A DNA stretch of 64,000 nt from Candidatus Doudnabacteria bacterium (GTDB lineage: Bacteria > Patescibacteriota > Doudnabacteria > UBA920). The stretch's first letter is position 1. Each line of letters begins with the position of its first letter. The notes beneath the pieces are model-generated. The model was not told the DNA's origin, searched no databases, and was given only the letters and a program-made list of their open reading frames with translations. The position numbers and the translations under genes were made by a program. Positions 16,458 to 52,402 of the stretch are shown one piece after another. Where the stretch lies: the NCBI GenBank assembly GCA_963768175.1, contig CAVYGQ010000001.1, forward strand, positions 190,305 through 254,304, given 5' to 3'.

Positions 16458-16640
16458 AATGGCAAGGTCTTGGCGGCGGAAATATATAAATTTCCGCCGC
16501 CAGAAAATAATTTAATTAGCTTTGTTCTGGTGATTGTTTGTTGATAAAAAATGCGGCCGCATTTTATACTAACAGCCACCAGCACAAATTCCAAGTTGGG
16601 GTACAAGCGGCTGGGCTTGCCCAAACAGACCGGAGGGTCT

Positions 16641-16907: not shown

Positions 16908-17272
16908 AACACCGTTGGCCGGCTGTCGCAAAACCATGGCAGTGGCTTTTCCGCCCACAACGGGCAGCGTTGCCACCTGCCACAACCCGGGAGGCGAAAT
17001 ACATTTTCGCCTCCTCCCACCTACTTGACAATCTTTATCAATTTGCTAAAATAATATAAATGATTAAATTAACACAAAATTTCTGGTTTTATTTTACGCC
17101 GGGCGTTGAGCTTGGAAATTTTGAGTTGATTAACGATGATTTAAAACCTTAAAGTACTTGGATACATATCAACTTAAGACTCCCGATCTCGACGCGAGAC
17201 GGGATTTTTTGTTTGTCCACGCGAGTGTTTGCGGACAAACCGGCATCAATATCTGATAGGGGGATATCATAA

Positions 17273-17467
17273 ATGGCAAACTGCAAATGCGGAGCCGAAC
17301 GTGAACCAAGTGGGGTCTGCTCAGACCCCAAATGTTATCTGGATTGCCCACCTTTCCCTCTGGCTGAAACTTTGAGGCCGAAGGAGGCGGGGTTCAGAGT
17401 CACAGACGAAACCATGCTTGCTGCTTGGCTTGCCGCAACAAAAGAGAATCAAGTCTGGCCAAAATAG
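17273..17467 (+). CDS. hypothetical 64-aa Cys-rich protein (CKCG...GVCSDPKCYLDCPP)
   Basis: Strong SD tagggggatatcataa-ATG; six Cys in the first 26 residues; preceded by hairpin + T-tract at 17172-17205. Confidence 0.3.
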   Translation: MANCKCGAEREPSGVCSDPKCYLDCPPFPLAETLRPKEAGFRVTDETMLAAWLAATKENQVWPK

Positions 17468-17651
17468 AGCATCGGCGGGGAGAAAGGTACGAAAGACATC
17501 AACCCTCATACCACTCCCCGCAACAACCCTATTTTTCGTCCAAAAAGGGCTTTTTTATTTTGCCTAACTCTGTTATAATAAATACTAATGACAAAAATTT
17601 AAAAAATAATAAAAATGACAAAAATATTGAATCCGCCATTTTTGTTCAATT

Positions 17652-20444: not shown

Positions 20445-20880
20445 TTTTTTAAAGACTGAATTTCTGTTACCGACGCTCCTGTTTATTTTGTTTGAAACGC
20501 TTGATAGTTATATCACAATTATAGGCACACAGGGAGGCAACCAGAATTTTGAAGGTGATTTTATAGTGATATGGTTATGGCAGAGGCTGGGACAATATTA
20601 TTGGACATTGACCTTTATTTGGGTTCCTGTGGCGATTTTTATCGGACTGGCATTTTTTAGATTTATTGACAGGAAAATAGCTCTTATGTGGATGTATTCA
20701 GTTGGTTTTTCACACTTGCTTGGTTTTCTAACATGGACCCATTACGATATAATTAACCGGTTTACCGCAAGTCTAACCAATAACCAGTCGGTGGGGGTAC
20801 TATTTTTCGCAGCGTTTTTGTTAGGCGTATCCGCGACTTTTATCCACATAAAAATTAAGCCAAAATTAATTATTCATTAG
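20428..20880 (+). CDS. hypothetical membrane protein (4 predicted TM helices)
   Basis: ATG overlapping the secA stop; hydrophobic segments LLPTLLFILF, VPVAIFIGLAFF, GFLTW, VGVLFFAAFLLGV. Confidence 0.5.
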   Translation: MGKTYSFLKTEFLLPTLLFILFETLDSYITIIGTQGGNQNFEGDFIVIWLWQRLGQYYWTLTFIWVPVAIFIGLAFFRFIDRKIALMWMYSVGFSHLLGFLTWTHYDIINRFTASLTNNQSVGVLFFAAFLLGVSATFIHIKIKPKLIIH

Positions 20881-20888
20881 GAGAAATA

Positions 20889-21155
20889 ATGCCCAACGAT
20901 TATCTGAAAAAAGAACCGTCTAAAACCGAAAAATTTATGTATGAACTGGCGGTACACCAGCAGCAGCTGGAAAACCAGACTTTTTCCAATTCCATGACCG
21001 TTTTAGCGGTGGCTTTGGCTTTGGGGGCGGACGCGCAAAAAATTGCCAAGTTCTTAACAACCGATGAAGAAAAAATCAAGGAATTTGGTAAAAGCATAAA
21101 TGAAGCCATAGCCAAGTTCAAACCCGCAAAAGAAGAAACGAAAAAGGCAGAATAA
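20889..21155 (+). CDS. hypothetical small protein
   Basis: ORF with SD ggag 6 nt upstream; no recognisable domain. Confidence 0.45.
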   Translation: MPNDYLKKEPSKTEKFMYELAVHQQQLENQTFSNSMTVLAVALALGADAQKIAKFLTTDEEKIKEFGKSINEAIAKFKPAKEETKKAE

Positions 21156-21166
21156 TTTTGCTTTGA

Positions 21167-21220
21167 AACAATGGGCACCATTGGATTAAGGCATTGTTCA
21201 GACCAATGGTGCCCATTGTT
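21167..21220. repeat. palindromic repeat element, 18-bp perfect arms AACAATGGGCACCATTGG / CCAATGGTGCCCATTGTT (copy 1 of 2)
   Basis: Same arms found at 54373-54424. Confidence 0.8.
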
Positions 21221-21239
21221 AGCCCTAACTCAAAAAAGT

Positions 21240-21791
21240 ATGTTAAAGTTTATTACCGGCAATAGAACAAAGTTTAAAGAAGTGGCTGTGGTGCTGGCGC
21301 CTGTTAAAATTAGGCAGGTTAACATTGATTTAACTGAAATCCAGGAGCTGGATCCGCGAAAAATCATTGAACATAAATTGCGGGAGGCACTTAAGCACCA
21401 AAAGGGCGAGTTTATTATTGACGACAGCTCTTTATATCTAAAATGTTTTGGCTACAAATTGCCGGGACCACTGGTAAAATGGTTTAACGATACAATCGAA
21501 AGCAACGGCTACGCGGAATTAGTAAAATCTATGGGGGAGAACCGGGCTAAAGCCAAAACGATTATCGGTTACGCTAAAAACTCCAAATCTATTTTGTTTT
21601 TTGAAGGTAGTTTAAGCGGTAAAATTGTTGCGCCAAGGGGAAAATATAATTTTGGCTACGATCCGATTTTTGTGCCTTACGGAAAACGCGAAACTTTATC
21701 GGTAATCAAAGCTAAGGGTAATTTTGCATCCAGCCCGAGAGGAATCGCGGTTTTGAAGTTAAAAAAATACTTGAAAAGCAAATCACATTAG
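21240..21791 (+). CDS. rdgB: non-canonical purine NTP pyrophosphatase (Ham1/RdgB/ITPase family)
   Basis: MLKFITGNRTKFKEV N-terminus and FGYDPIFVP C-terminal motif; the ORF-track start at 21171 would read through the repeat element, so the ATG at 21240 is preferred. Confidence 0.75.
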   Translation: MLKFITGNRTKFKEVAVVLAPVKIRQVNIDLTEIQELDPRKIIEHKLREALKHQKGEFIIDDSSLYLKCFGYKLPGPLVKWFNDTIESNGYAELVKSMGENRAKAKTIIGYAKNSKSILFFEGSLSGKIVAPRGKYNFGYDPIFVPYGKRETLSVIKAKGNFASSPRGIAVLKLKKYLKSKSH

Positions 21792-29165: not shown

Positions 29166-30518
29166 ATGGAAGTTTTAACAAGCATATTGCCGAATTTCAG
29201 AGAAGTTTTCCATATAGCCTTTTTGGTAATAGTTACCTATTACGGATGGGTGCTTTTTGTTTTAGGGCTTGTTTATATGCTTTATTTTGAATATTTGGAA
29301 GAAATCCAGGCACAATATGTTAAAGCTACCGAGTGGGTATTCCTACATATTTTAGTGCCAAAGGAAAATACAGTAAGCACGTTGGGGGTGGAAAATATTT
29401 TTGCCCAAATGCACGCGCTTCACAGAAGCCTAACTTGGCATGAAAAGTATGTTGAGGGGAAATTCCAATTGTGGTATTCCCTGGAAATAGTCAGTTTGGG
29501 CGGTGTAGTATCTTTTATTTTAAGAGTACCGAAGCGTTCCCAGCATCTGGTTGAATCCGCTTTTTACGCCCAATACCCGAGTGCCGAAATCCATGAGGTA
29601 TCGGATTACATGGAAAACTTCAAATTGGACCCTTACAATGACGATAACCAGTACGATTTTTTCGGAACAGAATGGAAAATGGCCCAGGATAGCGTTATCC
29701 CCATAAAAACCTATAAAGAGTTTGAACATCCTTCGGCCGAAGAAAAAATTATAGACCCGCTTGCCAATCTGATTGAAACCATGGAGCGGGTTAAGCCGCA
29801 CGAATTTTTATCGTTGCAAATCCTCATCCAGCCTATCCAAAATGACGAATGGGAAGAGCGAGCCGTAAAAAAAATAAAAGAGCTGACTGGCGAGGAAATT
29901 CCGCACGAAGCTTCAATCTTAGGCTTTTTCCTAAGGCCGCTTCACTGGTTTGCCGGTTTTAATTACAAAGAAACCTTTTTTGGTTCCCATGGTGGCCACG
30001 CCGAGCAGGAAAACAAACCCAGGAATAACTGGCTGAACATGAGCGAAGGGGAAAAGGGGCGCGTGACTCTAATTGAAAATAAAATTAACAAGGCCTGTTA
30101 TAATACCAAAATAAGATTATTGTACATGGCGCCCAAGGCCGAATATGACAAAGGCAGGCGTTTTGAACTAATCGGCGCGCTTAGGCATTTTAGCCCTGGT
30201 GGCGGGGCCGGGATGCACAACACGCTTAAGGTTGACTCGCATATCTGGACAAAGGTAGATCCATACTTTTCCGAGGCTTTGGAAGCGTACTTTTTGGACA
30301 GAATTACAAAGTACAGAAAATATTGGTTTTTACGGGGCTACAAAAACCGCAGTATTTACGTCGGATCACCGAAGTTTTTACTGAGTACGGAAGAACTTGC
30401 CACGTTATTCCATTTCCCGATTACTTTTGAAACCACGGTAGCGCCAGCCCAAGTGCAGGCCATAGCCAGTAAAACCGCCAGGCCACCGGCAGACTTGCCG
30501 ATTGCCCAGACCGAGTAA
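29166..30518 (+). CDS. hypothetical membrane-anchored protein (partner of the downstream ATPase)
   Basis: Single N-terminal TM region HIAFLVIVTYYGWVLFVLGLVYMLYF; no recognisable domain. Confidence 0.5.
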   Translation: MEVLTSILPNFREVFHIAFLVIVTYYGWVLFVLGLVYMLYFEYLEEIQAQYVKATEWVFLHILVPKENTVSTLGVENIFAQMHALHRSLTWHEKYVEGKFQLWYSLEIVSLGGVVSFILRVPKRSQHLVESAFYAQYPSAEIHEVSDYMENFKLDPYNDDNQYDFFGTEWKMAQDSVIPIKTYKEFEHPSAEEKIIDPLANLIETMERVKPHEFLSLQILIQPIQNDEWEERAVKKIKELTGEEIPHEASILGFFLRPLHWFAGFNYKETFFGSHGGHAEQENKPRNNWLNMSEGEKGRVTLIENKINKACYNTKIRLLYMAPKAEYDKGRRFELIGALRHFSPGGGAGMHNTLKVDSHIWTKVDPYFSEALEAYFLDRITKYRKYWFLRGYKNRSIYVGSPKFLLSTEELATLFHFPITFETTVAPAQVQAIASKTARPPADLPIAQTE

Positions 30519-30525
30519 TTGCTTA

Positions 30526-30624
30526 AAACTTTCTTTACCAACTACTAATTTTACGAATATACCAATGTTCGTTCTCAGAAGTTAGTATATTAGTATCGAT
30601 TCGTAGTTAGTAAAGTCAGTAATT
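30526..30624 (+). repeat. ~100-bp conserved intergenic element (copy 1), ending 5 nt before the start codon
   Basis: aactttctttaccaactactaatt...agttagtatattagta..gattcgtagttagtaaagtcagtaatt, near-identical to 48459-48555. Confidence 0.8.
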
Positions 30625-30629
30625 AAAAA

Positions 30630-32444
30630 ATGGATAACGACGAAAACAGAATTACAATTTTTGCCAAAACCAACTTCCGCAACAAGGAAGTGCCTTTTGG
30701 CATTAAAACCGACGACCGCCGCCGCCATATGTATTTAATCGGGAAAACCGGCATGGGCAAAACCACGCTTATGGAAAATATGGTCATTCAGGACATCCAA
30801 AACGGTCACGGCGTGGCATTTTTGGATCCGCACGGCGATTCAGTCAAAAGAATTTTGGACTGCGTCCCATCAAACCGAATAAACGACGTAATTTATTTTA
30901 ATCCAGCAGATTTGGAATACCCCGTGGCTTTCAATATTTTGGAATCGGTTGATCCAAAATACAAACATTTGGTGGCTAGCGGGCTTATGGGCGTTTTTAC
31001 CAAAATCTGGGCTAATTTGTGGTCAGCAAGGATGGAATACATTTTGAACAATACGATTTTGGCTTTGCTGGACAGCCCGGGCAACACCCTTTTGGGAATT
31101 ACCAGGATGTATGTGGATAAAAAATACCGCAAAAAAATCGTGGATAACATTAAAGACCCCATGGTCCGCGCTTTTTGGGTAGATGAGTTTGCCAATTATA
31201 ACGAAAAATACCGCACCGAAGCCATTGCGCCAATCCAAAATAAGGTCGGGCAGTTTTTGAGCTCCGGCATTATCCGCAACATTGTCGGGCAGCCAAAAAG
31301 CACAATAGACCTGCGCGAAATCATGGACAACCGTAAAATCCTGATTATGGATTTGTCCAAGGGAAAAGTCGGCGAAGACAACTCCGCGTTGCTTGGCGCC
31401 ATGCTGGTAACCAAAATCCAGCTGGCCGCCATGTCCCGCACGGACATCGACGAAAAAGACAGAAAAGACTTTTACCTTTATGTGGACGAGTTCCAGAATT
31501 TTGCCACCGAAAGTTTCGCCACAATTTTAAGCGAAGCCCGCAAGTACCGCCTTAACTTAATTGTCGGCCACCAGTATATTGCCCAGCTGGAAGAAGACAG
31601 AAGCACCAAAGTCCGCGACGCGATTTTCGGTAACGTCGGGACGATTATTATATTCAGGATTGGCGCCGTAGACGCCGAATTTTTGGAAACTGAATTCGAG
31701 CCGATTTTTACCCCAAGCGACCTGGTTAACTTGCCCAAGTATTCAATTATTTTAAAATTAATGATTAACGGCGTGGCTTCGGACCCGTTTTCCGCGATAA
31801 CTCTCGCACCCAACCCTACCCATCTTACGGGCAACCAGGAAAAAGTTTTAAAAGTTTCCAGGGAACGTTATGCCAACCCCGCCTCTGAAGTTGAAGAAAA
31901 AATTTCCCGTTGGATGGGCGCGGAATATCACCAGGAATCGGCTTTACTGATAGGCAGCGAAGAACAGCAACCGTCGGAGTCGCCCGAACAAAACCAGCAG
32001 CCCGTTGAACGGCCAAAGCCGCAGGCCCAAGAGAAAGCTGAAGCCGAAGCTCAAAAAAATTCGGAGCCTAAAAAGCCGGCTGAATCGCCCCAAAGGCCGT
32101 TTATTGAAAAAAAGGGCCAGGTTTTCAGGCAACCGGAAAAAGCTCGCCAGCAAAAAGACCGGCCTCACAGGCAACAGCAAAACCAACAGCCAAGGCAGCA
32201 AACCAAAACCAATGTCAGCAACCGCGGCCAAGAATCAAGGACCCAGCAAAAAAGGGAAAACCCCATTTGGGATAAAGTTGCGAATTTTCAACAGGAAAAA
32301 ATTAACCAAGCAAACAAAAAAACCGGCGAGGCCGTGGCTCAAATATTAACCCAGTCTCCACAACCCGTCGTTCCAAAGCCGCAATTAGAATCGGGAACAG
32401 TAGAAAAAAAAGTTCTAAACCCAGGCGAATTGCACAAACTATAA
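30630..32444 (+). CDS. VirD4/TraD/TrwB-like FtsK-HerA-superfamily P-loop ATPase (AAA_10/TraG-D_C-like) with ~190-aa low-complexity Q/P/E/K-rich C-terminal tail
   Basis: Walker A LIGKTGMGKTT followed by AFLDPHGD (compare TrwB VDPNGD); Walker B FYLYVDEFQNF; GHQY; disordered tail QQPSESPEQNQQPVERPKPQAQEKAEAEAQ... Confidence 0.6.
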   Translation: MDNDENRITIFAKTNFRNKEVPFGIKTDDRRRHMYLIGKTGMGKTTLMENMVIQDIQNGHGVAFLDPHGDSVKRILDCVPSNRINDVIYFNPADLEYPVAFNILESVDPKYKHLVASGLMGVFTKIWANLWSARMEYILNNTILALLDSPGNTLLGITRMYVDKKYRKKIVDNIKDPMVRAFWVDEFANYNEKYRTEAIAPIQNKVGQFLSSGIIRNIVGQPKSTIDLREIMDNRKILIMDLSKGKVGEDNSALLGAMLVTKIQLAAMSRTDIDEKDRKDFYLYVDEFQNFATESFATILSEARKYRLNLIVGHQYIAQLEEDRSTKVRDAIFGNVGTIIIFRIGAVDAEFLETEFEPIFTPSDLVNLPKYSIILKLMINGVASDPFSAITLAPNPTHLTGNQEKVLKVSRERYANPASEVEEKISRWMGAEYHQESALLIGSEEQQPSESPEQNQQPVERPKPQAQEKAEAEAQKNSEPKKPAESPQRPFIEKKGQVFRQPEKARQQKDRPHRQQQNQQPRQQTKTNVSNRGQESRTQQKRENPIWDKVANFQQEKINQANKKTGEAVAQILTQSPQPVVPKPQLESGTVEKKVLNPGELHKL

Positions 32445-35314: not shown

Positions 35315-36883
35315 ATGTATTCACTATTGATAAAAAACGCCACGGTCATTGACGGCACCGGAAAGCCGGGGCAGGTTTTGGATGTGGCCGTGCAGGGTGA
35401 CGAAATTGTAAATATTGCGCCAAAAATAGATTTGCAGGCGCAATCGGTTATTGACGCAACCGGGAAAGTTCTTAGCCCTGGCTTTGTGGATTTGCAAAAC
35501 CACAGCGACAGCTATTGGCAAATTTTTGACAACCCCCAACTACACAGTTTAATTAGCCAGGGCTACACCACGATTTTAGTGGGAAACTGCGGCGCCAGCC
35601 TGGCGCCCCTGTTAACTCACGAAGCTTTATATTCATTGCAAAAATGGCACAATCTAGAAGGGATAAATGTCAATTGGGTTTCCTACAGCGAGTTTATAGA
35701 AGAGCTTTCCAGAAAACGCTTTGCCTGCAACATAGCCAGCCTGATAGGCTACTCAACCTTGAGAAGAGCAATGGTCGGCGACCAAATTAGGAGCTTGGAA
35801 AAACAGGAACTTAATGCCCTAAAAACCGCGCTTTCAGAAAGTTTGGAAGCAGGGGCATTTGGCTTGTCCAGCGGCTTGTCTTACGCTCACGAAATAATTA
35901 TTTCCGAGCTGGAGCTTTTTGAGCTGGCAAAAATCGTAAAAAGCGCGAGTGGTTTGTTCTCAATCCACTTAAGAAGCGAAGGCGGGGAAATTATTGAAGC
36001 TTTGGACGAAGCTTTGGACATTGCCAAGGCTACGGAAGTCAATTTAAAAATTTCCCACTTAAAAGTCCGCAATCAGCAGAACTGGGACAAGTTTCCCGAA
36101 GTTTTGAGTTTAATCGATACGGCCTATATGCAAGGCACCCAGGTGCATTTTGATTTATATCCTTACGACATTATGTGGCAGCCGCTTTACAGCTACTTGC
36201 CGAAATGGGCCATAGAGGGCGGGCGGAAAATTATGTTAAAGCATTTTGCGGATCCAGTGCAAAAAAATAAAATTTTAATGTATTTGAACAACCTGGGCGT
36301 TAAATTTTCGGAAGTGCGCGTAGCGTCCACGGCCAGCAGGCTGAACTTTGCCGGAAAAACTATCGGTCAAATTGCCAAAAATTTGGAATGTTCCAGCGAG
36401 CAGGCAGTTTTGCATTTGATACAAAACGGCGGCAGCGAAGTTCTGGTTTTCGAAAAAAATTTGGACATGGAACAGGTTGAGCAATTAACCCTCCACCCTT
36501 TATCGTTTATCAGCACCGACGGCGCCGGGTTCAGCAATTTATCCGCAGGCGGCGGGCTGGTCCATCCGCGGTCTTTTGGAACCGCAACTAAATTTTTGGC
36601 CAATGTCCGGAAGACCGGAAGCCTGCCAATGGAAACAGCCATAAGAAAGTTGACCTCCGGCCCCGCAAAAAAAATGGGTTTAAAAAAACGCGGGGAAATT
36701 CAAATTGGAAATTTTGCAGACTTGGTCATCTTTGACCAGGAAAAAATTACCGACAAGGCCAGCTACGAAAACCCTTATCTATTAAGCGAGGGGATTTCTT
36801 ACGTGTTTGTTAACGGCAAGGCCGCGCTTTCGGAAGGAAAATTAACCAACCAGTTGCCCGGGTATGCCTTGAGAAAGGGTTAA
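35315..36883 (+). CDS. N-acyl-D-amino-acid deacylase (D-aminoacylase, amidohydrolase superfamily)
   Basis: LIKNATVIDGTG...SPGFVDLQNHSD metal-binding N-terminus, ~520 aa D-aminoacylase architecture. Confidence 0.75.
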   Translation: MYSLLIKNATVIDGTGKPGQVLDVAVQGDEIVNIAPKIDLQAQSVIDATGKVLSPGFVDLQNHSDSYWQIFDNPQLHSLISQGYTTILVGNCGASLAPLLTHEALYSLQKWHNLEGINVNWVSYSEFIEELSRKRFACNIASLIGYSTLRRAMVGDQIRSLEKQELNALKTALSESLEAGAFGLSSGLSYAHEIIISELELFELAKIVKSASGLFSIHLRSEGGEIIEALDEALDIAKATEVNLKISHLKVRNQQNWDKFPEVLSLIDTAYMQGTQVHFDLYPYDIMWQPLYSYLPKWAIEGGRKIMLKHFADPVQKNKILMYLNNLGVKFSEVRVASTASRLNFAGKTIGQIAKNLECSSEQAVLHLIQNGGSEVLVFEKNLDMEQVEQLTLHPLSFISTDGAGFSNLSAGGGLVHPRSFGTATKFLANVRKTGSLPMETAIRKLTSGPAKKMGLKKRGEIQIGNFADLVIFDQEKITDKASYENPYLLSEGISYVFVNGKAALSEGKLTNQLPGYALRKG

Positions 36884-37215
36884 AAGGGTGGCATTAGGAA
36901 TGTTTTTTTAACGCACGGCTTAAAATTGACGCCAAAAAACTCCTGAAGCCCAAATTCAATAGAGTTTGGCCTTCTTAAAAAGATGCCCCCAACAGAAATC
37001 AAAATAAAGCCGGAATGCTGGAGGGGAGAGAATATTTCCAGTAAGCTTTTTAGAATTACCTTCACAAAAACCGCCGCGCTTTCCGGCCTTAGGCGGGTCA
37101 GCCTCGGACTGATGCTATGCGCGGGGTTTTTGTTTTTTGGCTTTGGGCTTGCCGGTGGGCTCCGTGGTCAGTGAGCGGGTGCTCCAATAACCTTAAGGTC
37201 AAGCAGACAAACCAT

Positions 37216-40200
37216 ATGTCCCTGTACCAAAAATTAAAACAAACTTCCCTTCGACCCCCCCACTGGCACCAGTATCTTGTCCCTTATGGGGTGGCTTTGG
37301 CTTTTCTCGTGCTCTTGTCCCTGGCTTTGCTGCCAACCTTCAGCCATCCGGTTAAGGCCGCGGCTACTACTTATTATATTGATTATGCCAGCGGCAGTGA
37401 TTCTTATAACGGAACTTCAAAAGCTACACCTTGGAAACACGCGCCGGGGATGCAGGGTTTCTCTGCTTCTTACACTCATCAGGCCGGAGATGTTTTTATT
37501 TTCAAAGGCGGCGTGACCTGGGGCGAAACCAATTGGAAAATGACAGTGAACGGTGGCGGTACGAACGGCGACCCCGACTACTATGGTGTCGACAAGACTT
37601 GGTACACGGGGAGTTCGTGGGCGCGACCGATCTTCGATGCTGAAAGTGCATCAATTAGCGGTAATGGAATTATGATTCAGGTTGAAGCCGGTTATGTTAC
37701 CTTTGACAACATCGAGTTTAGGAACCTCGTGAGTGCGTCTTCTGCCGCAACGAAGTACATCGGGATAGACAGCCAGTCTAACATTCTGGTCGAGAATTGT
37801 TATTTTCATGCGTGGGACCAGGTGTACTTCAACATCTCGACGATTAGCCGAAACTCAAGTGGGGTGGTGACCGTGACAACAGCAGGGGCGAATGATTTTA
37901 CCACCGGTATGAACTTGGTCGTTTCAGGCGTCACAGACAATTCATTCAACACGTCGTGCGGCAATCACTGCGGCAGTCCTACGGGGTCCATCACGGTCAT
38001 GAGCGGGACGCAATTTATTTACACGAGTGCGAATATGACGGCAGCAAGTTCCAGCGGAGGCATTGTCAGTGACACTGATCAGGGCATGGGAGTTGTGACA
38101 TGCGGCGGAACTTGCACCTCGAATGAGGTGACAAATTGCCTGATTGAAAATACGTCTTTCTCCACCGTTCACAATTCCGGCGAGGTATTTCAAGGTATCA
38201 ACCATATCGACCACAATACGATACACGATGTTGCCTCGGTCGCTTCCGGGGTTAACGTCTTTGATGACAACCTGATCTACGACGTAAGCTACCCGACGGC
38301 CGATTTTGACGCTTCTTACCATACCGATGGTGCCTACCAGGTGTACTCTGGAGCCATATACAACAACGTCTTCTATAACTACGGCGCGAATGAGACGGCC
38401 CTCTACCCGAACCCAGAGGGCGATAACTCCACGTGTACCCCAAACACCGTAAGCATTTACAATAACGTCTACTTCCCGCTGGCAGCACCCGATACCGTGA
38501 ACATGGTGGACATCAATGACTCTTATTATACGGGAGCGGGCGGGTGCGACACGATCAACATTTACAACAATACCTTGGTGGCGAATGGCTTGGTCGATGC
38601 TGTCCGAGTGATCGGCAGGGGGTCAGGAATTGCCAACCTGAACGTTGAAAACAACCATTTTATCAATTCGACAGGTGCGGTAGAACTTTGCTTTAATATG
38701 AGTGGCTGTGGCAATGCGGCGACAGTTACCAATACTAACAACATCTGGCAGTCAACAGCGACGGCAACCGCGCAAGGCTATACGACCTCCGAGGTATATG
38801 CTTATTCCCCAGTTTCAGGCGGCGCAACGATCGGAGCGGGCGCAAATTTAACGGAGGTCTGTTCTGGGAATCTTGCAGCACTGTGCAATGACACTACTTT
38901 TGGCAATAGCCGCACAACGGTAAGTCGTCCCGCCTCCAGCGCTTGGGATGCCGGCGCTTACCAATATCAGACAGCTCCGTTAGCCAATGTCTATATTGCC
39001 CAGACCGCCCAAGGTTCAAACAACGGTACTTCCTGCGCCAATGCCAAAGCCGTCTCCTTCTTTAACACTGCCGGCAACTGGGGTACCGGCACCGGCCAGA
39101 TTGGCCCCGGCACCACGGTACACCTGTGCGGGGTGTTTTCTACCGCAACTCCGAACACTTCTATGCTCACGCTCCAAGGCAGCGGCTCATCTGGCTTACC
39201 CATCACAATTTTGTTTGAGAGTGGCGCTCAATTGAATTCTCCTGCCTGGGGAGCGAACGGCGCAATCAATCTGAACGATCAGAATTACATTACTATCGAC
39301 GGAGGCACAAACGGGCTTATTCAGAACACTGCCAACGGGACCAGTCTGACTTACCATCAGGCTTCCACGATGGTGTACCAGCCAAGCATTTCCGGGTCGG
39401 TACATGACATTGAAATTCGTAATCTTACGTTTACAAACAATTACGTGCGTGTGGCAAACACCGCGTCGGACGAGGCAGCCGCTGGTGGCAGCGGTGTCAT
39501 CGTTCTCTTGTCTGCGGGAAGCAACATCCTTATTCACAACAACACGATGACAAACTGCGGAAACGGTGGTATTGGCGTGTCTGGAAGCAACACGAATTCT
39601 ACGAATTGGCAGATATACAGCAACACTATTAGTCAGGCATCCTGGCTCATCAATGTGGCTAACGTCAATAGCCAAACCCACTATATCTTCATCCATGACA
39701 ACGATCTGTCAAACAACGATCAATACTGGGACACAACCCTAGTAAATTGCGGAGATGATTGCCCATACTTTCACAACAATGCAATTTTCCTTTATGGCAA
39801 TCCTACCGGCGGAGCCACGGGAACCTATGGCTATGCCTATATCTATAACAATTACATTCATGGTGCGCTAGGGGTCATGACGGGTTTCATATTCGCCAGT
39901 CTCACGACGGATGGCCCAATCTATGTCTTTAATAACGTGATGAAGCCGACATCAACCTACACTGGCGGTCCTAGTAACCTAGCCTGCAACGCGGATGGGT
40001 GGGTAGCGCTGCCCTGGCAGACCCTAGACGTTCACGTCTATAATAACACCTTCAATGCGAGTGCAGCCTGTGGAAATAGCTCTCCCAGCCCCTACAACTT
40101 CGGCACCAGGACCACCGTATCCAACGCGAGCACGTTGGACTGGGTGAACAATATAAACTATTATGTCTCCGGCCACGACATTGAGGATGGGGCTATTGGC

Positions 40201-43200
40201 ACCTCGGATTACAACGTCTGGTATGGAATTAGCTCGGGAGGGGAGCCCCAGCAGGCGTTCAAGTGGAACGTCTCAAACGCAGGCTGGTGGTACTACTACA
40301 ACACATCTTGCCCGAGATGGACCTATAGCGCGGCGCAGAACACGAGTTGCGGAGAATCCGGCGATCCTCGCCCATCCGCATACGATATCCACGGTGTCAC
40401 AGGAGACCCGAAGCTATCCACAACCGACCAGCTAGGTGCTGGGTCTTCGGCAATAGGGCTTGGGACGAACCTAACATCTGTCTGTAATTCAGATTCGAAT
40501 CTGGCTCCTCTGTGTCTGGACAAGTCCGGCACCGCCCGTCCCGCCTCCGGTGCCTGGGATGCCGGCGCCTACCAATACGCCACCAGCACCGACACCACCC
40601 CTCCCGCCGTGGCTTGGGTGTCTCCGGCCTTAAATGCCACGGTCTCCGGAACCGTCACCCTCACCGCCTCCTCCACCGATAACGTGGCTGTTTCCACCAC
40701 GTCCTTCTATGAGGGTAGCTTCGGCAGCAGTCTTGCCTCCAGCACCCTCATCGGCTCCACCTCCACCCCCAGCGGTACCCTATATTCCATACCCTGGAAC
40801 ACGGCCTCTCTTACGAACGGCTCCACCACCCTCTGGGCCCTCTCCACCGACACCTCCAGCAACACCACTACGGCCTCCAGCACGGTCAATGTGGAGAATC
40901 CACCTACAATCTCTGCCGTCTCCACCTCCACTGCCACCAGTACCGCCACCATCACCTGGACCACGAGCCACACCGCCTCTTCCCAGGTCAACTACGGTCT
41001 CACCTCCGGCTACGGCTCTTCCACCGCCACCTCCACCCTGGTCACCAGCCATTTAATCACCCTAACCAACCTTACGGCTAGCACCACTTACCACTACCAG
41101 ATCCTCTCCACCGACGCCCAGGGAAACCCAGCCACCACGACGGATGCGACATTTGTGACCATGGCTTTAAGCTCCCGCACCTTCTATATCGATCTCGTAT
41201 CTGGCAACGATTCCCAAGCTGGAACTAAGTTAGCCCCCTGGAAACATGCCCCCGGAATGACGGGGTTCAGCGCAACCTACAGCCATGCCGCAGGAGACCA
41301 ATTCATTTTCAAAGGTGGGCAGACGTGTGGTTCGAGCGGCACCCCCTGCTTCACATCCTGGACTATTTCTAACTCCGGGTCCGCTGGGGCGGGACATGAT
41401 TACTATGGGGTTGACCAGACATGGTATGCCGGAGCCTCATGGTCAAAACCTGTTATTGATGGCGGCCACAAGAACCCCGTGGTTGCCGACCCCTATATTG
41501 AAATCACGGGCTCCTACGTCACCATGGACAGTCTGCGCGTGCAGAACATTGGCGTAACTCCCGCAGAGAACGGTGGAACGGGACTGAATCAAGGAAATTA
41601 TGCCGTTGAGCTTACCGGAGGCAATCACGACATCTTGATTGAAAATATGGTATTGCCTGTGGAGAGCCGGATCGCCATTGCTTTTATAGAGTCTGGAACT
41701 CCGAACAATATTGAGATCAAAGGGAATGATATTTCCGCATGTTCATGGGGACTGGGCGGTGGCGGAGGCGTCGGCACGGGCTTTTCTTTCCATGACAACG
41801 TCATCCATGATTTCCACGACCAGATGGCAAGCGGGGCCCATGGAGATGGCCTGTACATTTTTGGTGACGCCACCAGCTACCTTGTAAGTCCTCTTATTTA
41901 CAATAATTGGGGCTATGGCGACTTCTCGCCGTCTGAACTCGGGCAGCGGGGCCGGGATGACCGCGTTTCTGTGGATTTCCGCCGCTTCCGGGAACCTGTA
42001 CGCGTACAACAACCATTGGACGGAGAGCGACACAACAGGAGGAACAGCACATGCGTTAAGCTTTGGCGGACCAGATGCAAGCGTACAGCCCAACGTCTAT
42101 ATCTACAACAACAGCATCCAGCAGAACGCGGTGTCGTACTACGGCATTTCGGTTGACCAAGCCGCGAGCGCGGTCGTTGAAAACAACATCGTTATCGGCG
42201 GCAGCGAGGCTCTGACCTTCGGGCAGTATCAGAACGTCAGAAGCGTAACCAGCGACTACAATGATCTCTACGGGTTCACCGCTTATGCCGCTACTGTCAA
42301 TGCCTCGGCATACGGAAGCTGGGCGAGTTTCCATTCAGCCGGATACGAAGCTCACGGCTTCAATACCGATCCCAAGTACGTAAATCCGACAGATTCCGGA
42401 AGCGGTGGCAACTTGCATTTACAATCCTCATCGCCTCTCGTTGGGCAAGGGGTCAATTTGTATTCGATATTCACCACCGACGCGGACGGCATTTCCCGTC
42501 CCGCCTCCGCCGCCTGGGACATCGGTGCTTACCAGTATGCCACCTCCACCCCCACCTACACCATCGGCGGCACCATCAGTGGCCTGACCGGCACCGTAGT
42601 GTTGCAGAATAACGGGGGAGATAACCTCACTACCTCTGCCAACGGCGCCTTTACCTTTGCCACGGCCACCACCAGCGGGGGAACGTATAATGTCACGGTC
42701 TTAAGTCAGCCCTCAAACCAGACCTGCAGTGTCAGCAACGGCAGCGGCACCGTCTCTAGCGCTAACATTACCAGTGTTACCGTGTCCTGCACCACCAATT
42801 CCTCTGGAGGTGGTGGGGGAGGCGGCGGCTCATCAGGCGGTGGCGGGGGAGGCGGTGGGGGATCAATTGCCCCTGTTTCCTCAACTCCCCAGCCCGGTGC
42901 TCCAAGTACCTCAACCTCTCCCTCGGTCTTGCGCCTGATTAACTCCTCCGGCACCCTCTATCTCATTAAGGGGGGCTACCGTTACGGTATTACCTCCCCG
43001 GGCATCCTCTACAGCTATGGTTTTGACTTTCCGGATGCCAAAGCAGCCACCACCGCTGATTTAGCCATACCCTTGGGCAGTTTGCTCCTGCCCGGCAACG
43101 GCTATCTGGTTAAATCTAACCAGGACAAGACAGTTTACCTCATTTCCAACAACCGGCGTTATGCTTTTGTCTCTGCCCAGGTCTTTACCGCCCTTGGTTT

Positions 43201-43483
43201 CTCTTTTAGCCATGTCTTTATTGTCACCAACCCGGAACTGCAGTCCTTGCCTAGAGCCGCTGACCTCAGCAACGGCCAATCGGCTCATCTGCCCGGCTTA
43301 GACATCAACAAACAAGGCACCATCTACTGGATTGGGGGGGACAGCACCCTGCACGGTTATCCGTCCTTAGCTGTTTATAACAGTTGGCACAAAGATAATG
43401 ATTTTTCACAAGTAGTTCCCGCTAATACCGCTGATATGTCTATGCCCATAGGTGGTCTGGTGGAGGCAAGGACGCTGGAGTAA
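37216..43483 (+). CDS. giant (~2,090 aa) secreted multi-module right-handed beta-helix / Ig-FN3 / poly-Gly / C-terminal triple-repeat surface protein, GC-rich, reading frame interrupted by an apparent frameshift near 41,930-41,960
   Basis: ORF-track pieces 37117..42156 and 41915..43483 overlap in different frames. Signal peptide VALAFLVLLSLALLP; three NxxxN-rich beta-helix modules each capped by RPASxAWDxGAYQY; near-duplicate module N-termini (TTYYIDYASGSDSYNGTSKATPWKHAPGMQGFSASY / TFYIDLVSGNDSQAGTKLAPWKHAPGMTGFSATY); T/S-rich FN3-like region; G8-SS-G10 linker; three ~50-aa C-terminal repeats. Confidence 0.7.
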
Positions 43484-43584
43484 GGTCGGACAAATAAAAA
43501 AATCGACCAATCTGTTTATGCCAGTTGGTTTTTATTTTGCGTAAAATATGGTAAAATAAAAAGGCTGAAAGGCAAACATTTAAA

Positions 43585-44961
43585 ATGGAAACCAAAGATT
43601 TGCAAGAAAAACTTGTTGCTGTTTTAGGGTTTGGCATGGAAGGTCGCGCGGTGACGGCGTATCTAATAAAGCACGGAGTTAAACCCGTGCTGTTTGATCA
43701 AAAGCCATGGACAAAATGGACGGAGAAAGACCGGGAATATATAAAGTCTCTTGGACTGAATTTTATTTTTGGGCCGGATGCATTTAAGGAGTTGGCAGGG
43801 TTTGATATAGCATTTAGGAGTCCAGGGGTACAATTGTCAAAAATCAAAGGTCAATTACCAAAAGTTGCGATTATAACCTCCCAAACCAAATGGTTTTTTG
43901 AACACTGCCCGGCTAAAATCATCGGGGTTGCCGGCACTAAGGGTAAAGGCACAACCGCAAGCCTAATTTTTGAGATACTTCGGGCCAACAGCCGCAGGCT
44001 AAAGGCCAAGTGCTATTTGACCGGCAACATCGGCAAAATTCAGCCGATGGATTTCTTGGACGACTTGGATGCCGAAGACTGGGTAATATACGAACTTTCA
44101 AGTTTTCAATTGCAGGATTTAACACAAAGTCCGCATATCGGAGTGGTCTTAATGGTTACTGGAGAGCACTTGGATTACCATAAAACCGTTAAAGAATACC
44201 ATGAAGCCAAAACTTCCATTGTAAAATTCCAACAAAAAGGCGATATTGCGATTATAAATCAGGATTTCCCCGCATCAAAATCCATAGGTTCGTTTGGCAA
44301 AGGCAAAAAATTGTTTTTTAGCCGCGTTAAACCACAAAAGAACGGCTGCTTTGTCCAAAATGATATGATCTTGGCGCCAATTTTTAATTTCCAGTTCCTG
44401 GCCTCTAAATTGCAATTACGGGGCAGGCACAACCTGGAGAACGTTTGCGCGGCAGTCTTGGCGTCTTTTAGCGCGAGATGCTCCGCGCAGTCAATAAAAA
44501 GCGTCTTAAAAAAATTCAAAGGGCTGGAACACAGGTTGGAATTTGTAGCCGAAAAACAGGGAATAAAGTTTTTCAACAACTCCTTTTCCACTACGCCAGA
44601 AACTTGTATCGCCGCCATAGAAAGCTTCAAAGAACCTTTAATTGTGATTTTGGGAGGCTCATCCAAAAATTCAAATTTTTCAAGGCTTGGGGAAACGCTG
44701 GGTAACACAAAAAACATTAAAGCTTTAATCCTTATTGGCCGAGAAGCGGGCAGAATTAAGGATGCCGTAAGCGGCACAAAAAAATTTGAAGGAAAATTCT
44801 TTGAGGGAGCAAAAAATATGGAGGAAATTTTTAGCCAAATCAAGGGAGTAGCTTCGGACGGAGATGTAGTGTTGCTTTCACCGGCTTGTGCCAGCTTTGA
44901 TATGTTCAGCAGTTACGTAGATCGGGGTAACCAATTCAAACAAGCCGTAAGGAATTTTTAA
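43585..44961 (+). CDS. murD: UDP-N-acetylmuramoylalanine--D-glutamate ligase
   Basis: VAVLGFGMEGRA Rossmann N-terminus; VAGTKGKGTTASL P-loop. Confidence 0.9.
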   Translation: METKDLQEKLVAVLGFGMEGRAVTAYLIKHGVKPVLFDQKPWTKWTEKDREYIKSLGLNFIFGPDAFKELAGFDIAFRSPGVQLSKIKGQLPKVAIITSQTKWFFEHCPAKIIGVAGTKGKGTTASLIFEILRANSRRLKAKCYLTGNIGKIQPMDFLDDLDAEDWVIYELSSFQLQDLTQSPHIGVVLMVTGEHLDYHKTVKEYHEAKTSIVKFQQKGDIAIINQDFPASKSIGSFGKGKKLFFSRVKPQKNGCFVQNDMILAPIFNFQFLASKLQLRGRHNLENVCAAVLASFSARCSAQSIKSVLKKFKGLEHRLEFVAEKQGIKFFNNSFSTTPETCIAAIESFKEPLIVILGGSSKNSNFSRLGETLGNTKNIKALILIGREAGRIKDAVSGTKKFEGKFFEGAKNMEEIFSQIKGVASDGDVVLLSPACASFDMFSSYVDRGNQFKQAVRNF

Positions 44962-50167: not shown

Positions 50168-52402
50168 ATGTTCCAGAACAACATCAGAAATTTCTGCATC
50201 ATCGCTCATATTGACCACGGTAAGTCCACGCTGGCTGACCGGCTTTTGGAAATTACCCACACAGTCAGCAAGCGTGACATGAAGGACCAGCTGCTTGACC
50301 AAATGGATTTGGAACGGGAAAGGGGAATTACAATCAAGCTGCAACCTGTCAGAATGCAATATACGCTGACTAACACGGACAGTAAACGGACTAACGCGGA
50401 AGGCAATTTGTTATACGAGGATTTAACTTACAAGATAAGAGGGGCTGTATTTGAAGTCCGCAGGCAAATCGGCCCGGGCCATAAAGAAAGTGTTTACCAG
50501 AACGCCTTGGCTTTAGAGTTCAAAAAACGAAATATACCTTTTGAAAAGGAAAAACGCATTGATGTCTTGTATTACGATAAAAAAGTCGGCGTTTACCAAC
50601 CAGATTTTTTAATAGATAATAAAGTATTACTGGAAACCAAAGCTTTGTCATTTATTGGAAAGAATGAAGAGAGACAGGTTTGGCATTATTTAAAAGGTAC
50701 TCCATATAAACTCGCTCTATTAGTCAACTTCTCTTCTGCCGGCGCCGATATCAAACGGATTATTAATACTCCGTTACAGTCCATTTCCGAAAAGTCCGTT
50801 CCTAGTCCATCACCGTCAGTGTACACATTGAATTTAATTGATACGCCAGGGCATGTGGACTTTAGTTACGAAGTTTCGCGATCCCTTGCCTGCTGTGAAG
50901 GCGCAATTTTAGTCGTGGACAGCACGCAAGGCATAGAAGCCCAAACCTTGGCCAACGTCCACTTGGCACAGGAGCATAATTTGGTTTTAATCCCGGTGGT
51001 CAATAAAATAGATTTGCCAAACTCCGACCGTAAACAAACCGCGGAAGAACTAAAAACCGTTTTTGGCTTCACGGACAATGAAATACTTTACGCCTCGGGG
51101 AAGACCGGCGAAGGCGTGGAGGATATTTTAAAAGCGGTAATCAAAAAAGTTCCTCCTCCGGTCGGCGACGAACAAAAGCCGTTCCGCGGCCTGATTTTTG
51201 ACTCCATGTACGACATCCACCGCGGCGTGGTAATTTTTGTCCGCTGTTTTGACGGAGAATTAAAAAACCGAGAAAAAGTCTTTACCATCGGCAGCCAAAC
51301 CCAGTTTGAAAGTTTGGAGGTCGGATATTTCCATCCAAAAATGGAAAAGTCCGATGGAATAAAAACCGGCGAAGTCGGCTATATAGTCACCGGTTTGCGC
51401 GACGTCAGCAAGGCCCGCGTGGGCGACACTGTCACGCTGTATGATCGAAAAACCGATGTAAAACAACTGCCCGGCTACAAACACGTAAAGCCGATGGTTT
51501 ATGCCACCATTTTCCCGGTCAGCGGGGATGACTATCCGCTTTTGCGCGATGCCATGAACAAATTAAAGCTTTCCGATGCCGCGCTGGAATTTGAGCCGAT
51601 AAATATTCCTTCCATCGGCTTTGGTTTCCGCACAGGGTTTTTGGGGCTGCTTCATATGGACATTGTACAGGAGCGCCTGACCCGCGAATACAATTTGGAT
51701 TTAATTTTAACCGCGCCTTCGGTGGCTTACCATGTCGTGACAAGCAGCGGAAAAGATTTATACATCCACAACCCGGCGGAGTTTCCCGATCCGTCCATCA
51801 TAAAAGAGCTTTACGAGCCGTGGATGTCCGTAAATATTTTGGTGCCGCAAACTTACATTGGCCCGATTATGGAAATCGCCACCCAGCGCCGCGCCATTTC
51901 CAAAGACATAAAATATTTGGGCAAAAATCGCGTGGAAATGAATTTTGAAATGCCGCTGGCCAATATTATTTCCGATTTTTACGATAAGCTTAAATCCGTG
52001 TCCAGCGGTTATGCCAGTTTGAATTATGATTTAATTGAAGAGCGGGTAGGGGATTTGGTTAAAGTGGATATCTTGGTCGCCGGCGAGCCGGTAGTCGCGC
52101 TGTCGGCAATTATGCACCGTTTTACCGCTACCGCCGAAGGCAAGCAATTAGTGGAAAAACTTAAAACCTTAATTCCCAAACACCAGTTTGAGGTTGCCAT
52201 TCAGGCCGCAATTGGCGGTAAAATAATCGCCCGCGAAACCATCTCCGCCCTGCGCAAAGACGTTACCGGCTACCTTTATGGCGGCGACGTCACCCGCAAA
52301 ATGAAACTTTTAAATAAACAAAAACGCGGCAAAAAACGGATGAAGAGAATAGGTAAGGTGGATATTCCTCAGGAGGCATTCCTTGCTGTACTTAAAAAAT
52401 AA
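50168..52402 (+). CDS. lepA: elongation factor 4 (LepA) carrying an in-frame ~150-aa GxxExxY / PD-(D/E)xK-family domain insertion between switch I and the DTPGH G3 motif
   Basis: [22 protein letters not shown], then insertion ([35 protein letters not shown]...[16 protein letters not shown]...[19 protein letters not shown]), then [24 protein letters not shown] and the complete LepA C-terminus. Confidence 0.85.
   Translation: [744 protein letters not shown]

Follow-up and report, generated by a model that had tools for sequence, protein, structure and literature searches.

A lineage-specific gene for a putative wall-anchored beta-helix surface protein, interrupted by a frame change, in the cell-wall gene cluster of a Candidatus Doudnabacteria-like genome

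The junction between an amidohydrolase gene and murD in a Candidatus Doudnabacteria-like (Patescibacteria) genome carries a 6.7-kb cassette. We propose, with a probability of roughly 0.6, that an accessory gene specific to this lineage has entered an insertion hot spot as this cassette, and that it encodes one modular, wall-anchored beta-helix surface protein, interrupted by a single +1 frame change in the third helix module. The window, that is, the whole stretch of 64,000 nucleotides that was analysed, shows the gene order PBP5, MraY, amidohydrolase, giant gene, MurD and FtsW at this locus.

A recurrent insertion point in the cell-wall gene cluster

The limits of the cassette were drawn by DNA comparison with a close relative, L001, in which a 2.0-kb DUF2207 gene occupies the cassette position. 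The homology between the two genomes (80-86% at the DNA level) ends at 36876 and restarts at 43595, and the sequence in between contains a single gene only. The features of the locus are as follows.

35315..36883, + strand: amidohydrolase (N-acyl-D-amino-acid deacylase-like), left flank; conserved dcw cluster member, outside the cassette
36877..43594: variable cassette of 6.7 kb, bounded by the stop codon of the amidohydrolase gene and the start of murD
43545-43560: conserved AAATATGGTAAAATAA motif, directly upstream of murD
43585..44961, + strand: murD, right flank

We also compared the locus with 34 relatives, all of which keep the order PBP5-MraY-amidohydrolase-MurD-FtsW-DUF4012-MurJ. This synteny comparison, which the original prediction had called for, showed that the giant gene is absent from the orthologous site in every one of them (0/34). 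The gap between the amidohydrolase and murD is at most 250 nt in 26 of the 34, and in seven others the junction holds unrelated cargo of 1.0-2.3 kb (DUF2207, a pilin-like gene, a PIN/antitoxin pair and others). At 6,701 nt, the gap in the window is the largest of the genomes compared. The amidohydrolase-murD junction is a recurrent insertion hot spot holding unrelated cargo. It had been predicted that the insertion lies between mraY and murD and that the D-aminoacylase-like gene is part of a disruption of the dcw cluster. An insertion does lie in this interval; however, its actual site is the amidohydrolase/murD junction, and the amidohydrolase is no part of the disruption because it is resident between mraY and murD in all 34 relatives.

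One gene in two reading frames

The cassette contains two overlapping open reading frames (ORFs) on the + strand, namely ORF A in frame 1 (37117/37216..42156) and ORF B in frame 2 (41915..43483). In the source annotation they are likewise two genes, P0001 and P0077, of which the first is a database protein of 1646 aa that is 100% identical to ORF A and starts at 37216. We read the gene as frame 1 from 37216 to ~41943, followed by frame 2 from ~41945 to 43483. The translations bear out what was originally described: past NNWGYGD, frame 1 turns into Arg-rich text, out of frame from ~41943 up to 42156, while frame 2 carries on with the YAYNNHW/IYNNS coils of a beta-helix. Both frames are open from 41888 to 42156, an overlap of ~270 nt, and since frame 2 is open from 41888, the shift is located between 41888 and about 41990. 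A homologue alignment puts the join between IYNNWGYGDFSPSEL and GSGAGMTAFLW, in which the exact junction residues are a guess.

Fused in this way, the third beta-helix module can be aligned end to end with intact modules of six homologues (P0016, P0018, P0020, P0022, P0019 and P0024), and GC3 is equal in both frames. That intact homologues align straight across the frameshift argues for one gene. Judged from sequence, then, the two ORFs are a single gene split by a single frameshift, in agreement with the original prediction of one protein split by an indel. No independent assembly of the junction was found, as a search with 261 aa spanning it matched only the source's own downstream gene P0077; the ORF B product from the ATG at 41915 had no match in the protein collection. 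Elsewhere in the window, the ORF pair 17652-20444 / 20323-20880 was considered as a second frameshift and rejected, as SecA is complete there, including its SEC-C motif.

Domain architecture of the fused product

The fused product of 2,088 aa comprises a signal peptide, three right-handed beta-helix modules, a Big_7, an FN3 and an Ig-like domain, a linker and a C-terminal triple repeat. Its parts, all on the + strand, are the following.

37216..41943: productive part of ORF A (signal peptide, modules 1 and 2, Big_7, FN3 and the first half of module 3)
37216..37365: Sec-type signal peptide, read from the translation, with a basic n-region, hydrophobic GVALAFLVLLSLALLP and an inferred cleavage site between VKA and AA
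37366..38976: beta-helix module 1, starting TYYIDYASGSD...PWKHAPGM; cap GAYQY at 38953-38967
38977..40611: beta-helix module 2, of a different subtype, starting NVYIAQTAQGSNNG; cap at 40564-40578
40612..41166: Big_7 (bacterial Ig), then an FN3 / Pur_ac_phosph_N-like domain
41167..42562: beta-helix module 3, divided between the two frames; cap at 42524-42538
41920..41960: where the +1 frame change (gacttctcgccgtctgaactcgggcagcggggccgggatga) most probably lies, judging from the overlap of the open frames and the homologue alignment
42563..42805: Ig-like / prealbumin-like beta-sandwich domain
42806..42922: flexible linker, G8-SS-G9 and then a Pro/Ser/Thr-rich stretch
42923..43483: 186-aa C-terminal module, made up of three EccB/PlyCB-like repeats of about 58, 63 and 65 aa, and the stop codon

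Three beta-helix modules closed by RPAS.AWD.GAYQY caps had been predicted, and the caps are found at fused residues 613, 1150 and 1803. The 70 nt that encode the cap form a three-copy DNA repeat. Those of modules 2 and 3 match the choice-of-anchor Q model NF041518 with 28.3 and 35.0 bits (cut-off 25), and that of module 1 is a diverged third copy. The choice-of-anchor Q domain usually precedes a terminal sorting signal; the giant protein has three internal copies, the last of which is followed by the Ig domain, the linker and the repeat module. Module 1 is 36% identical to P0004 over 582 aa and 34% to P0005, and module 2 is 65% identical to P0003 over its N-terminal 82 aa and 30% over the rest. 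Modules 1 and 3, whose opening segments had been taken for an internal duplication, share 48% identity over their N-terminal 126 aa; we rejected this reading, since the same modules show 50-51% identity to the foreign homologues P0013, P0012 and P0019 and are thus no closer to each other than to these.

The Thr/Ser-rich FN3 stretch expected between the modules was found, and so was the poly-Gly linker, at 42806-42862. Big_7 scored above its Pfam threshold (30.1 bits, cut-off 24.1), and fn3 (20.4 v 25 bits) and Pur_ac_phosph_N (27.8 v 30 bits) fell just under theirs; the whole stretch is 43-58% identical to the FN3 arrays of P0002 and P0007. The Ig-like domain resembles domains that are repeated in P0010, P0026 and P0034 (40-50% identity) and gives a weak CarboxypepD_reg match (E 0.027). 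About 200 scFv antibodies retrieved by a PDB sequence search with ORF B were rejected, because only the poly-Gly linker had matched.

The three-stranded coils, stacked into a right-handed helix, place the modules in the pectin-lyase-like fold. Neither ORF matched PF13229, PF12708 or NosD at E 0.1 or better, and a Pfam beta-helix match was seen only in the homologues P0022 and P0035, inside the aligned region; apart from Big_7, the direct Pfam and NCBIfam scans returned only weak fn3 matches and the cap domain. The AlphaFold2 (AF2) model of fused module 3, made from nine sequences, is of low confidence (pLDDT 49) and serves as a basis for the fold class only. Catalytic residues could not be assigned in the beta-helix modules, and the D..H.N motif of the homologues is missing in module 3 precisely at the position of the frameshift.

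Many carbohydrate-active proteins have this fold (PF13229 / pectin-lyase), including PL6/PL9/PL31 lyases, GH110, GH87, mannuronan epimerases and phage tailspike depolymerases. The giant protein differs from them in having three helices per chain, no direct Pfam match, no identifiable catalytic residues and a model of low confidence. The only solved structures matched by a sequence profile were the GH136 lacto-N-biosidase LnbX and its relatives (5gqc, 24mr and 7v6i; E 7e-6 to 3e-5), with which it shares the TYY(I/V)..G.D.N.GTS...PWK N-terminal cap and the first coils. However, this similarity is mainly confined to ~170 N-terminal residues, with the catalytic region unaligned and the rest poorly matched, so that the protein is not a demonstrated GH136 member. 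PfbA of Streptococcus pneumoniae (3zpp, 4mr0) is a beta-helix adhesin with a single helix and an LPXTG/sortase anchor, whereas the giant protein lacks LPXTG and has a putative non-covalent repeat module instead.

The C-terminal triple repeat

The three predicted C-terminal repeats are present, with ~60 aa each. Structure prediction, which had been suggested for this region, gave a model with a pLDDT of 97 and three EccB/PlyCB-like units. Its structural neighbours are the EccB repeats and the wall-binding domains of LysIME-EF1, Lys170 and PlyCB, and the earlier idea of a candidate surface-anchoring module agrees with this confident model. Going by the model, the module is probably a wall-binding anchor. 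The family had been described as unrecognised, which stands in that its about 3,700 clusters at 50% identity have no Pfam or NCBIfam model, but not for its fold, which is already known. Family members show weak sequence matches to PF05108/TIGR03919; PF05108 did not match the giant gene's own copy, and the family profile did not match EccB in the PDB by sequence. In nearly all cases within the family, the module forms the very C-terminal end of the protein, behind a low-complexity linker; now and then it follows the N-terminus directly. Its partner domains are interchangeable (fn3, Big_7, Laminin_G_3, beta-helix and DUF3472), and five residues of the module, E105, H122, N153, W155 and R183, are invariant.

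The best structural match is to the EccB repeats (PF05108, TIGR03919; 3x3m, 4kk7 and 7nps), with which the module shares a unit of ~55 aa composed of a small beta-sheet plus two helices. In contrast to EccB, however, the giant protein lacks an N-terminal TM helix and a central core domain and is not encoded in an ESX locus, its neighbours being dcw genes, and its three units stand in tandem rather than as 2+2 around a core; TM-scores against whole EccB are 0.25-0.29. Thus, it shares the repeat unit alone and is not an EccB, the core component of type VII secretion. The small beta-sheet and helix fold also occurs in the wall-binding domains of PlyCB, LysIME-EF1 and Lys170 (4f87, 6ist and 7d55), whose units are separate chains in 4- or 8-mer rings, whereas three diverged units are fused in the giant protein; sequence identity to these domains is ~10%. 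A published study likened the repeats of EccB1 to PlyCB and suggested that they bind peptidoglycan (PMC4769845), and the cell-wall-binding domain (CBD) of LysIME-EF1 is required as a tetramer for lysis (PMC7098653).

Composition and origin

The GC content of the giant gene is 0.53-0.56, against 0.427 +/- 0.029 in 38 other ORFs, with the highest 500-nt peaks in the gene region at 0.63, and its GC3 is 0.61-0.64, against 0.458 +/- 0.054 (maximum 0.544). The original description of a strongly GC-rich island therefore holds for the direction of the shift, but the shift is moderate. The short spurious ORFs on both strands are present in the ORF list as described. Synonymous codons ending in C or G are favoured (gene v host: TTC 0.49 v 0.21, GAG 0.62 v 0.26, ATC 0.42 v 0.21, CTC 0.22 v 0.04), and the codon-usage distance of 450-codon chunks is 0.14-0.22, compared with a host mean of 0.111 (sd 0.016). 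The GC excess is partly due to amino-acid composition, with GC2 at 0.51 v 0.35 and Gly, Thr, Ser and Ala enriched.

Deviant synonymous-site composition and absence from the orthologous site in relatives are thus both seen, as in a genomic island, and the outlying GC3 and codon usage together with the absence from 34 relatives agree with the predicted acquired, non-ancestral gene; we infer that its origin was horizontal. A mobility signature was not seen. The repeat scan found no direct or inverted repeats flanking the cassette, no integrase or tRNA target marks it as mobile (the sole tRNA is located at 59729), and scans for repeats, promoters and terminators returned nothing above chance that would point to a mobile element or to regulation.

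Alternative explanations

No other broken conserved gene was seen within the 64-kb window, which indicates a low error rate and slightly favours a real, recent lesion as the cause of the frame change. There is, however, a little less than an even chance that the change reflects a mistake in the assembly or consensus, or a minority allele, and that the organism makes an intact, anchored protein of 2,088 aa. The 512 downstream codons are fully open with the same GC3 as upstream, and a GC-rich outlier gene is harder to polish. Frameshifts are also abundant in the related long-contig MAGs L015 and L038, although the conserved genes of the window otherwise all look unbroken. The site lies within G-runs (cgggcagcggggccggg), but the run is no longer than 4, and the source annotation has two genes too. 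The strain is present in run ERR10755942, and a Logan contig of it ends at the edge of the cassette, 83 nt past the amidohydrolase stop, a hint that the region is hard to assemble or that the population is heterogeneous there. It is very improbable that the change is programmed, as a +1 ribosomal frameshift or a phase-variable switch controlling the anchored form. Phase variation classically targets surface proteins, rare CGG/AGG-type codons lie close to the site and the two frames overlap at length; yet the stretch 41888-41990 is free of in-frame stops, RF2-like CUU UGA motifs, slippery heptamers, long homopolymers and short tandem repeats. No conserved slippery or stop motif with a stimulator was found at the junction, and none of the aligned homologues has a frameshift at the site.

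We also considered the possibility that the gene is ancestral or moved within the lineage, its odd composition resulting from amino-acid content and expression-linked codon bias; it could then even encode an S-layer or major surface protein. The raised GC2 and the above-host GC of other genes with the same C-terminal module in L012 and L046 are consistent with this. In L047, an FN3 gene with the same module and host-like GC adjoins the amidohydrolase; however, it is oppositely oriented, and the tail domain is all that it has in common with the giant gene. Predictions of S-layer proteins with a beta-helix, and of S-layers in Patescibacteria, have been published (bioRxiv 10.1101/2024.05.28.596244), although a frameshift would be unexpected in a major structural protein. 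Moreover, the site is too tight for any gene in 26 of the 34 relatives and is occupied by unrelated cargo in the remainder, synonymous codon choice deviates for many amino acids, and family members in L043, L044 and L047 show host-like or lower GC3, so that high GC3 is not a family trait. This explanation therefore seems decidedly improbable. It is unlikely, if less so, that the C-terminal module targets the wall of a host or prey rather than that of the producer, as an endolysin-style 'enzyme + CBD' weapon or an episymbiont attachment factor. Its nearest experimentally studied fold relatives are phage endolysin CBDs that bind a target wall, the architecture is endolysin-like in its C-terminal placement behind a flexible linker, and capsule depolymerases and tailspikes are among the beta-helix neighbours. 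However, no other retention signal is left once the signal peptide is cleaved, many partners (fn3, Ig, Laminin_G) are non-enzymatic, as is typical of self-anchoring modules, and the scan of viral contigs found no copy of the module.

Proposed function and significance

Under the preferred reading, the Sec signal peptide would export a surface protein of ~2,090 aa, the outward-facing working part of which would be the three beta-helix modules spaced by Ig and FN3 domains. This part may bind, and perhaps cleave, polysaccharide. The Gly/PST linker would tether it to three covalently joined EccB/PlyCB-type units, which may retain the protein on peptidoglycan or a wall polymer by binding it at several points, as rings of four or eight units with this small fold do in phage endolysins. 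If the assembly is read literally, the product would be a secreted protein of 1,646 aa with two and a half modules and without the anchor.

A large beta-helix surface protein is in itself ordinary, and the noteworthy part is the tail, a widespread terminal module with a confidently predicted fold common to phage wall-binding domains and EccB. We tentatively suggest, at somewhat worse than even odds, that the triple repeat is a general non-covalent wall-anchoring (or host-wall targeting) module of Patescibacteria-type cells, with an EccB/PlyCB/Lys170-type fold swapped between extracellular heads, and that the amidohydrolase-murD junction is a preferred landing pad for surface genes. In this lineage, a D-aminoacylase-like gene is a fixed part of the conserved cell-wall synthesis cluster, and the recurrent insertion point within the cluster is useful in comparative and population work. 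The tail bears on the question of how CPR/Patescibacteria, which are believed to live attached to other cells, retain surface proteins or grip a host wall. The C-terminal module is small enough for direct expression and testing.

Reading frames of the giant gene

The giant gene consists of two overlapping reading frames:

37117-42156, + strand: ORF A (frame 1), with the start of the annotated protein P0001 at the ATG at 37216
41915-43483, + strand: ORF B (frame 2), open from 41888

Past ...IYNNWGYGD, frame 1 turns into Arg-rich text until its stop at 42156, and where it degenerates the coils (...NLYAYNNHWTE...VYIYNNSIQQN) continue in frame 2. A fused product was built from frame 1 up to 41943 and frame 2 from 41945; its length is 2,121 aa if counted from 37117 and 2,088 aa if the start is at 37216. 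Its fused third beta-helix module aligns over residues 5-461 with one unbroken module in each of at least seven foreign proteins (P0016, P0018, P0020, P0022, P0019, P0021 and P0024), and in the homologue alignment the frame junction lies inside a colinear coil (IYNNWGYGDFSPSEL|GSGAGMTAFLWISAASGNLYAYNNHW versus IHDNYFHDIPNPTDPQMHSNIM...GGLTAFNNVIHD). GC3 is equal on either side of the junction (0.61 and 0.635), and ORF B lacks a signal peptide of its own. Based on these three observations, the two frames belong to a single gene whose frame shifts by +1 at about 41920-41960, in agreement with the original prediction of one protein split by an indel.

Programmed frameshifting is unlikely, because there is no stop codon, slippery heptamer or long homopolymer at about 41920-41960 and the homologues are unshifted. 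We slightly favor a real, recent lesion, since the other conserved genes of the 64-kb window show no sign of breakage, which also speaks against the alternative of an assembly error. In favor of such an artefact, a same-strain contig from Logan (99.98% identity) stops 83 nt past the amidohydrolase stop, at the left edge of the cassette, and this suggests heterogeneity or assembly trouble there. The source annotation likewise has two genes, P0001 and P0077, and the searched collections held no second assembly spanning the junction. In two related MAGs of the MFD series with long contigs (L015 and L038), alignments of MurD, MurJ, LepA, FtsW and the amidohydrolase are often split; these genomes are riddled with frameshifts, and the window is not.

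Insertion site in the dcw cluster

The gene order in the window is as follows:

D-Ala-D-Ala carboxypeptidase, MraY, amidohydrolase (N-acyl-D-amino-acid deacylase-like), giant gene, MurD, FtsW, DUF4012 protein, MurJ, LepA

With the amidohydrolase as a probe, we obtained 39 loci from species-representative genomes (best identity, 86%), almost all of which carry a Candidatus Doudnabacteria, Patescibacteria or 'Saccharibacteria' MAG label, and we compared the 34 non-redundant relatives that hold both the amidohydrolase and murD. Because the order PBP5-MraY-amidohydrolase-MurD-FtsW-DUF4012-MurJ(-LepA) is kept in these 34, the amidohydrolase is a fixed dcw member of the lineage and lies outside any insertion. 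The proposal that this D-aminoacylase gene takes part in the disruption between mraY and murD is therefore not supported. The window copy lies at 35315-36883, and its counterparts (loci L001-L041) are elsewhere annotated as N-acyl-D-amino-acid deacylase. The DUF4012 protein stands between ftsW and murJ in the relatives as well, and both genes appear to be lineage-specific fixed dcw members.

The amidohydrolase-murD gap is at most 14 nt in 19 of the 34 relatives and at most 250 nt in 26; it is 472 nt in one and 1.0-2.3 kb in seven, whose cargo is unrelated (DUF2207, pilin-like, a PIN/antitoxin pair, a HAD and sugar-transferase pair, and others). The gap in the window, 6,701 nt, is the largest. 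DNA identity with the closest relative (80-86%) ends at 36876 and restarts at 43595, and a shared AAATATGGTAAAATAA motif is placed just upstream of murD. Comparison of mraY-murD synteny showed the giant gene at this site in none of the 34, and no flanking repeats, integrase or tRNA were found at the cassette. As far as the libraries searched show, the amidohydrolase/murD junction as a recurrent insertion point and the fixed D-aminoacylase-like gene in this dcw cluster are both new.

Several cluster junctions are variable: a 23S_rRNA_IVP-family gene separates mraY from the amidohydrolase in the closest relative, L001 (9475-9840), which also has a Pect-lyase/Beta_helix/NosD-type protein 3' of murJ (20066-21569), in the place of lepA in the window. 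At locus L047 of one further relative (JGI 3300046687, 1-2628), a convergent FN3 gene with host-like GC, whose product carries the same C-terminal module (58% identical), adjoins the 3' end of the amidohydrolase and runs off the contig; there the amidohydrolase is in two ORFs, and a 791-aa gene separates it from mraY. Upstream of the cluster, at 29166-32444 in the window, a DUF8128-like protein and a TrwB/TraG-type coupling-protein-like ATPase (DUF87, TrwB_AAD_bind, TraG-D_C) are encoded, and this pair has the same position in L001 and L047.

We also observed two further features in the window. LepA (50168-52402, 744 aa) is interrupted in frame by 145 aa at 50378-50812, with switch I (RGITIK) on one side and the DTPGH motif on the other; the insertion forms a complete PD-(D/E)XK nuclease-like PDDEXK_3 domain (PF13366, E 3e-32) and has a GC of 0.386, versus 0.472 in the remaining gene. 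In about 30 related genomes residues 1-70 are joined directly to 216-744, and no intein or intron signature was found in the insertion at the Rfam gathering level. The 2.3 kb between hpf (15028-15348) and secA (17652-20444), at 15350-17650, contain no more than short, mutually overlapping ORFs on the + strand, along with a number of perfect hairpins (e.g., 15398-15435), with no Pfam or Rfam match, and could be a decayed gene or a non-coding region.

Composition and origin

In 2-kb windows, GC climbs from about 0.42 to 0.50-0.57 over 36.9-43.6 kb, with 500-nt peaks of 0.61-0.63; the island is thus GC-rich as described, although 'strongly' was an overstatement. The raised GC2 of the giant gene (0.51-0.53 versus 0.35) reflects richness in Gly, Thr, Ser, Ala and Asn. 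Its GC3 of 0.61-0.64 is an outlier against the 38 other ORFs (0.458 +/- 0.054, maximum 0.544), and synonymous codons are shifted for many amino acids, such as TTC (Phe; 0.49 versus 0.21), GAG (Glu; 0.62 versus 0.26), ATC (Ile; 0.42 versus 0.21) and CTC (Leu; 0.22 versus 0.04). Related genes elsewhere have no common high-GC3 habit (0.25-0.26 in L043, 0.39 in L044, 0.455 in L047). Combined with the lack of the gene in relatives, the composition speaks for its acquisition from a higher-GC genome, as originally predicted; marks of mobility were not found.

The top beta-helix homologues are just 30-36% identical per module and single out no donor. Some are in non-CPR contexts, namely P0004, whose contig encodes KdpD and AsmA, and P0003 and P0005, whose C-termini are read as T9SS tails; others, P0017 and P0035, are from Saccharimonadales and Patescibacteria. 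Among surface proteins, large ones with beta-helix and FN3 domains are common, and a strain-specific copy at a hot spot is unremarkable.

Domains of the product

The N-terminus resembles a Sec signal peptide. When the pieces of the product were compared with each other, the three predicted modules were recovered, each closed by RPAS.AWD.GAYQY (residues 613, 1150 and 1803); the DNA encoding these caps is a three-copy repeat, and the caps match NCBIfam NF041518 'choice-of-anchor Q' above the cut-off. Modules 1 and 3 share the start TYYID..G.D.N.GTS...PWK.APGM and are 48% identical over 126 aa there. Since foreign proteins are equally near (50-51%), the internal duplication claimed for them need not be assumed as a recent event. 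The module 3 family profile matches the GH136 lacto-N-biosidases 5gqc, 24mr and 7v6i (E 7e-6 to 3e-5), along with a 'parallel beta-helix repeat protein', the similarity lying mostly in the first ~170 residues, and PF13229 is present within the aligned region of homologues P0022 and P0035. Modules 2 and 3 are separated by a Big_7 Ig domain scoring over the threshold and an FN3/Pur_ac_phosph_N-like domain just under it. Module 3 is followed by an Ig-like domain common to P0010, P0026 and P0034, and then by the linker, G8-SS-G9 and a PST stretch; the poly-Gly DNA reported earlier was located at 42806-42862.

The C-terminal module

For the final 186 aa, 35 homologues were found in the database at 48-68% identity; no other part of the product has homologues nearly as close. 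In all 35 the module is at the extreme C-terminus behind a low-complexity linker, and in none does a Pfam domain cover it. An exhaustive profile search gave 3,743 cluster representatives at E <=1e-3, 1,672 at 1e-10 and 298 at 1e-30, in proteins of about 120 to 3,250 aa; the position is nearly always C-terminal, sometimes residues ~35-230, and a few proteins have 5-15 repeats. Partner domains include fn3, Big_7, Laminin_G_3, beta-helix/GH141, DUF3472 and DUF2341, and L043, from a 40% GC genome, has the identical layout of beta-helix, Big_7, Gly-linker and C-terminal module. Viral contigs yielded no copy of the module. At locus L046 (JGI 3300037086, 1-2063) it occurs (62% identity) in a protein with Ig-like repeats and FN3, on a contig that also has TrmB, GlmS and ATP-citrate-lyase-like genes, so its range may extend beyond CPR bacteria.

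The AF2 model (pLDDT 97.1) has three units, each of three strands and two helices, and the repeats align pairwise, which bears out the three repeats noticed at the C-terminus. The best 11 Foldseek matches were all EccB1, EccB3 or EccB5 (probability 0.66-1.00). In sequence, the 15-repeat member P0076 matches TIGR03919 as well as PF05108 (39 bits against a cut-off of 27); two of 36 close members match PF05108 weakly, and neither the window's own module nor the family profile does. A likeness between EccB1 repeats and PlyCB has been described, with peptidoglycan binding suggested as a putative role (PMC4769845), and the cell wall-binding domain (CBD) of LysIME-EF1 acts as a tetrameric ring needed for lysis (PMC7098653), whereas here three units are fused covalently. 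From these likenesses, we infer that the module is probably a covalent trimer of PlyCB/EccB-type units and a multivalent wall binder.

Proposed function

We propose that Sec would export the giant protein with cleavage of its signal peptide, and that the C-terminal module, via the flexible linker, would hold it on the wall. The three beta-helices, spaced by Ig/FN3 domains, would then face outward and bind, and possibly cut, a polysaccharide from the surroundings or from a partner cell. Less probably, the module targets the wall of a host and not that of the producer, or the gene encodes an S-layer-like major surface protein (bioRxiv 10.1101/2024.05.28.596244). With the frameshift as assembled, a truncated, unanchored product of 1,646 aa would be released.

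The family of the candidate anchoring module was originally called unrecognised, which holds in that neither Pfam (2025) nor NCBIfam (2026) has a model for it, but its fold is linked to EccB and endolysin CBDs. As far as these libraries show, this widespread and confidently folded module is new, as is its link to EccB repeats and endolysin wall-binding domains.
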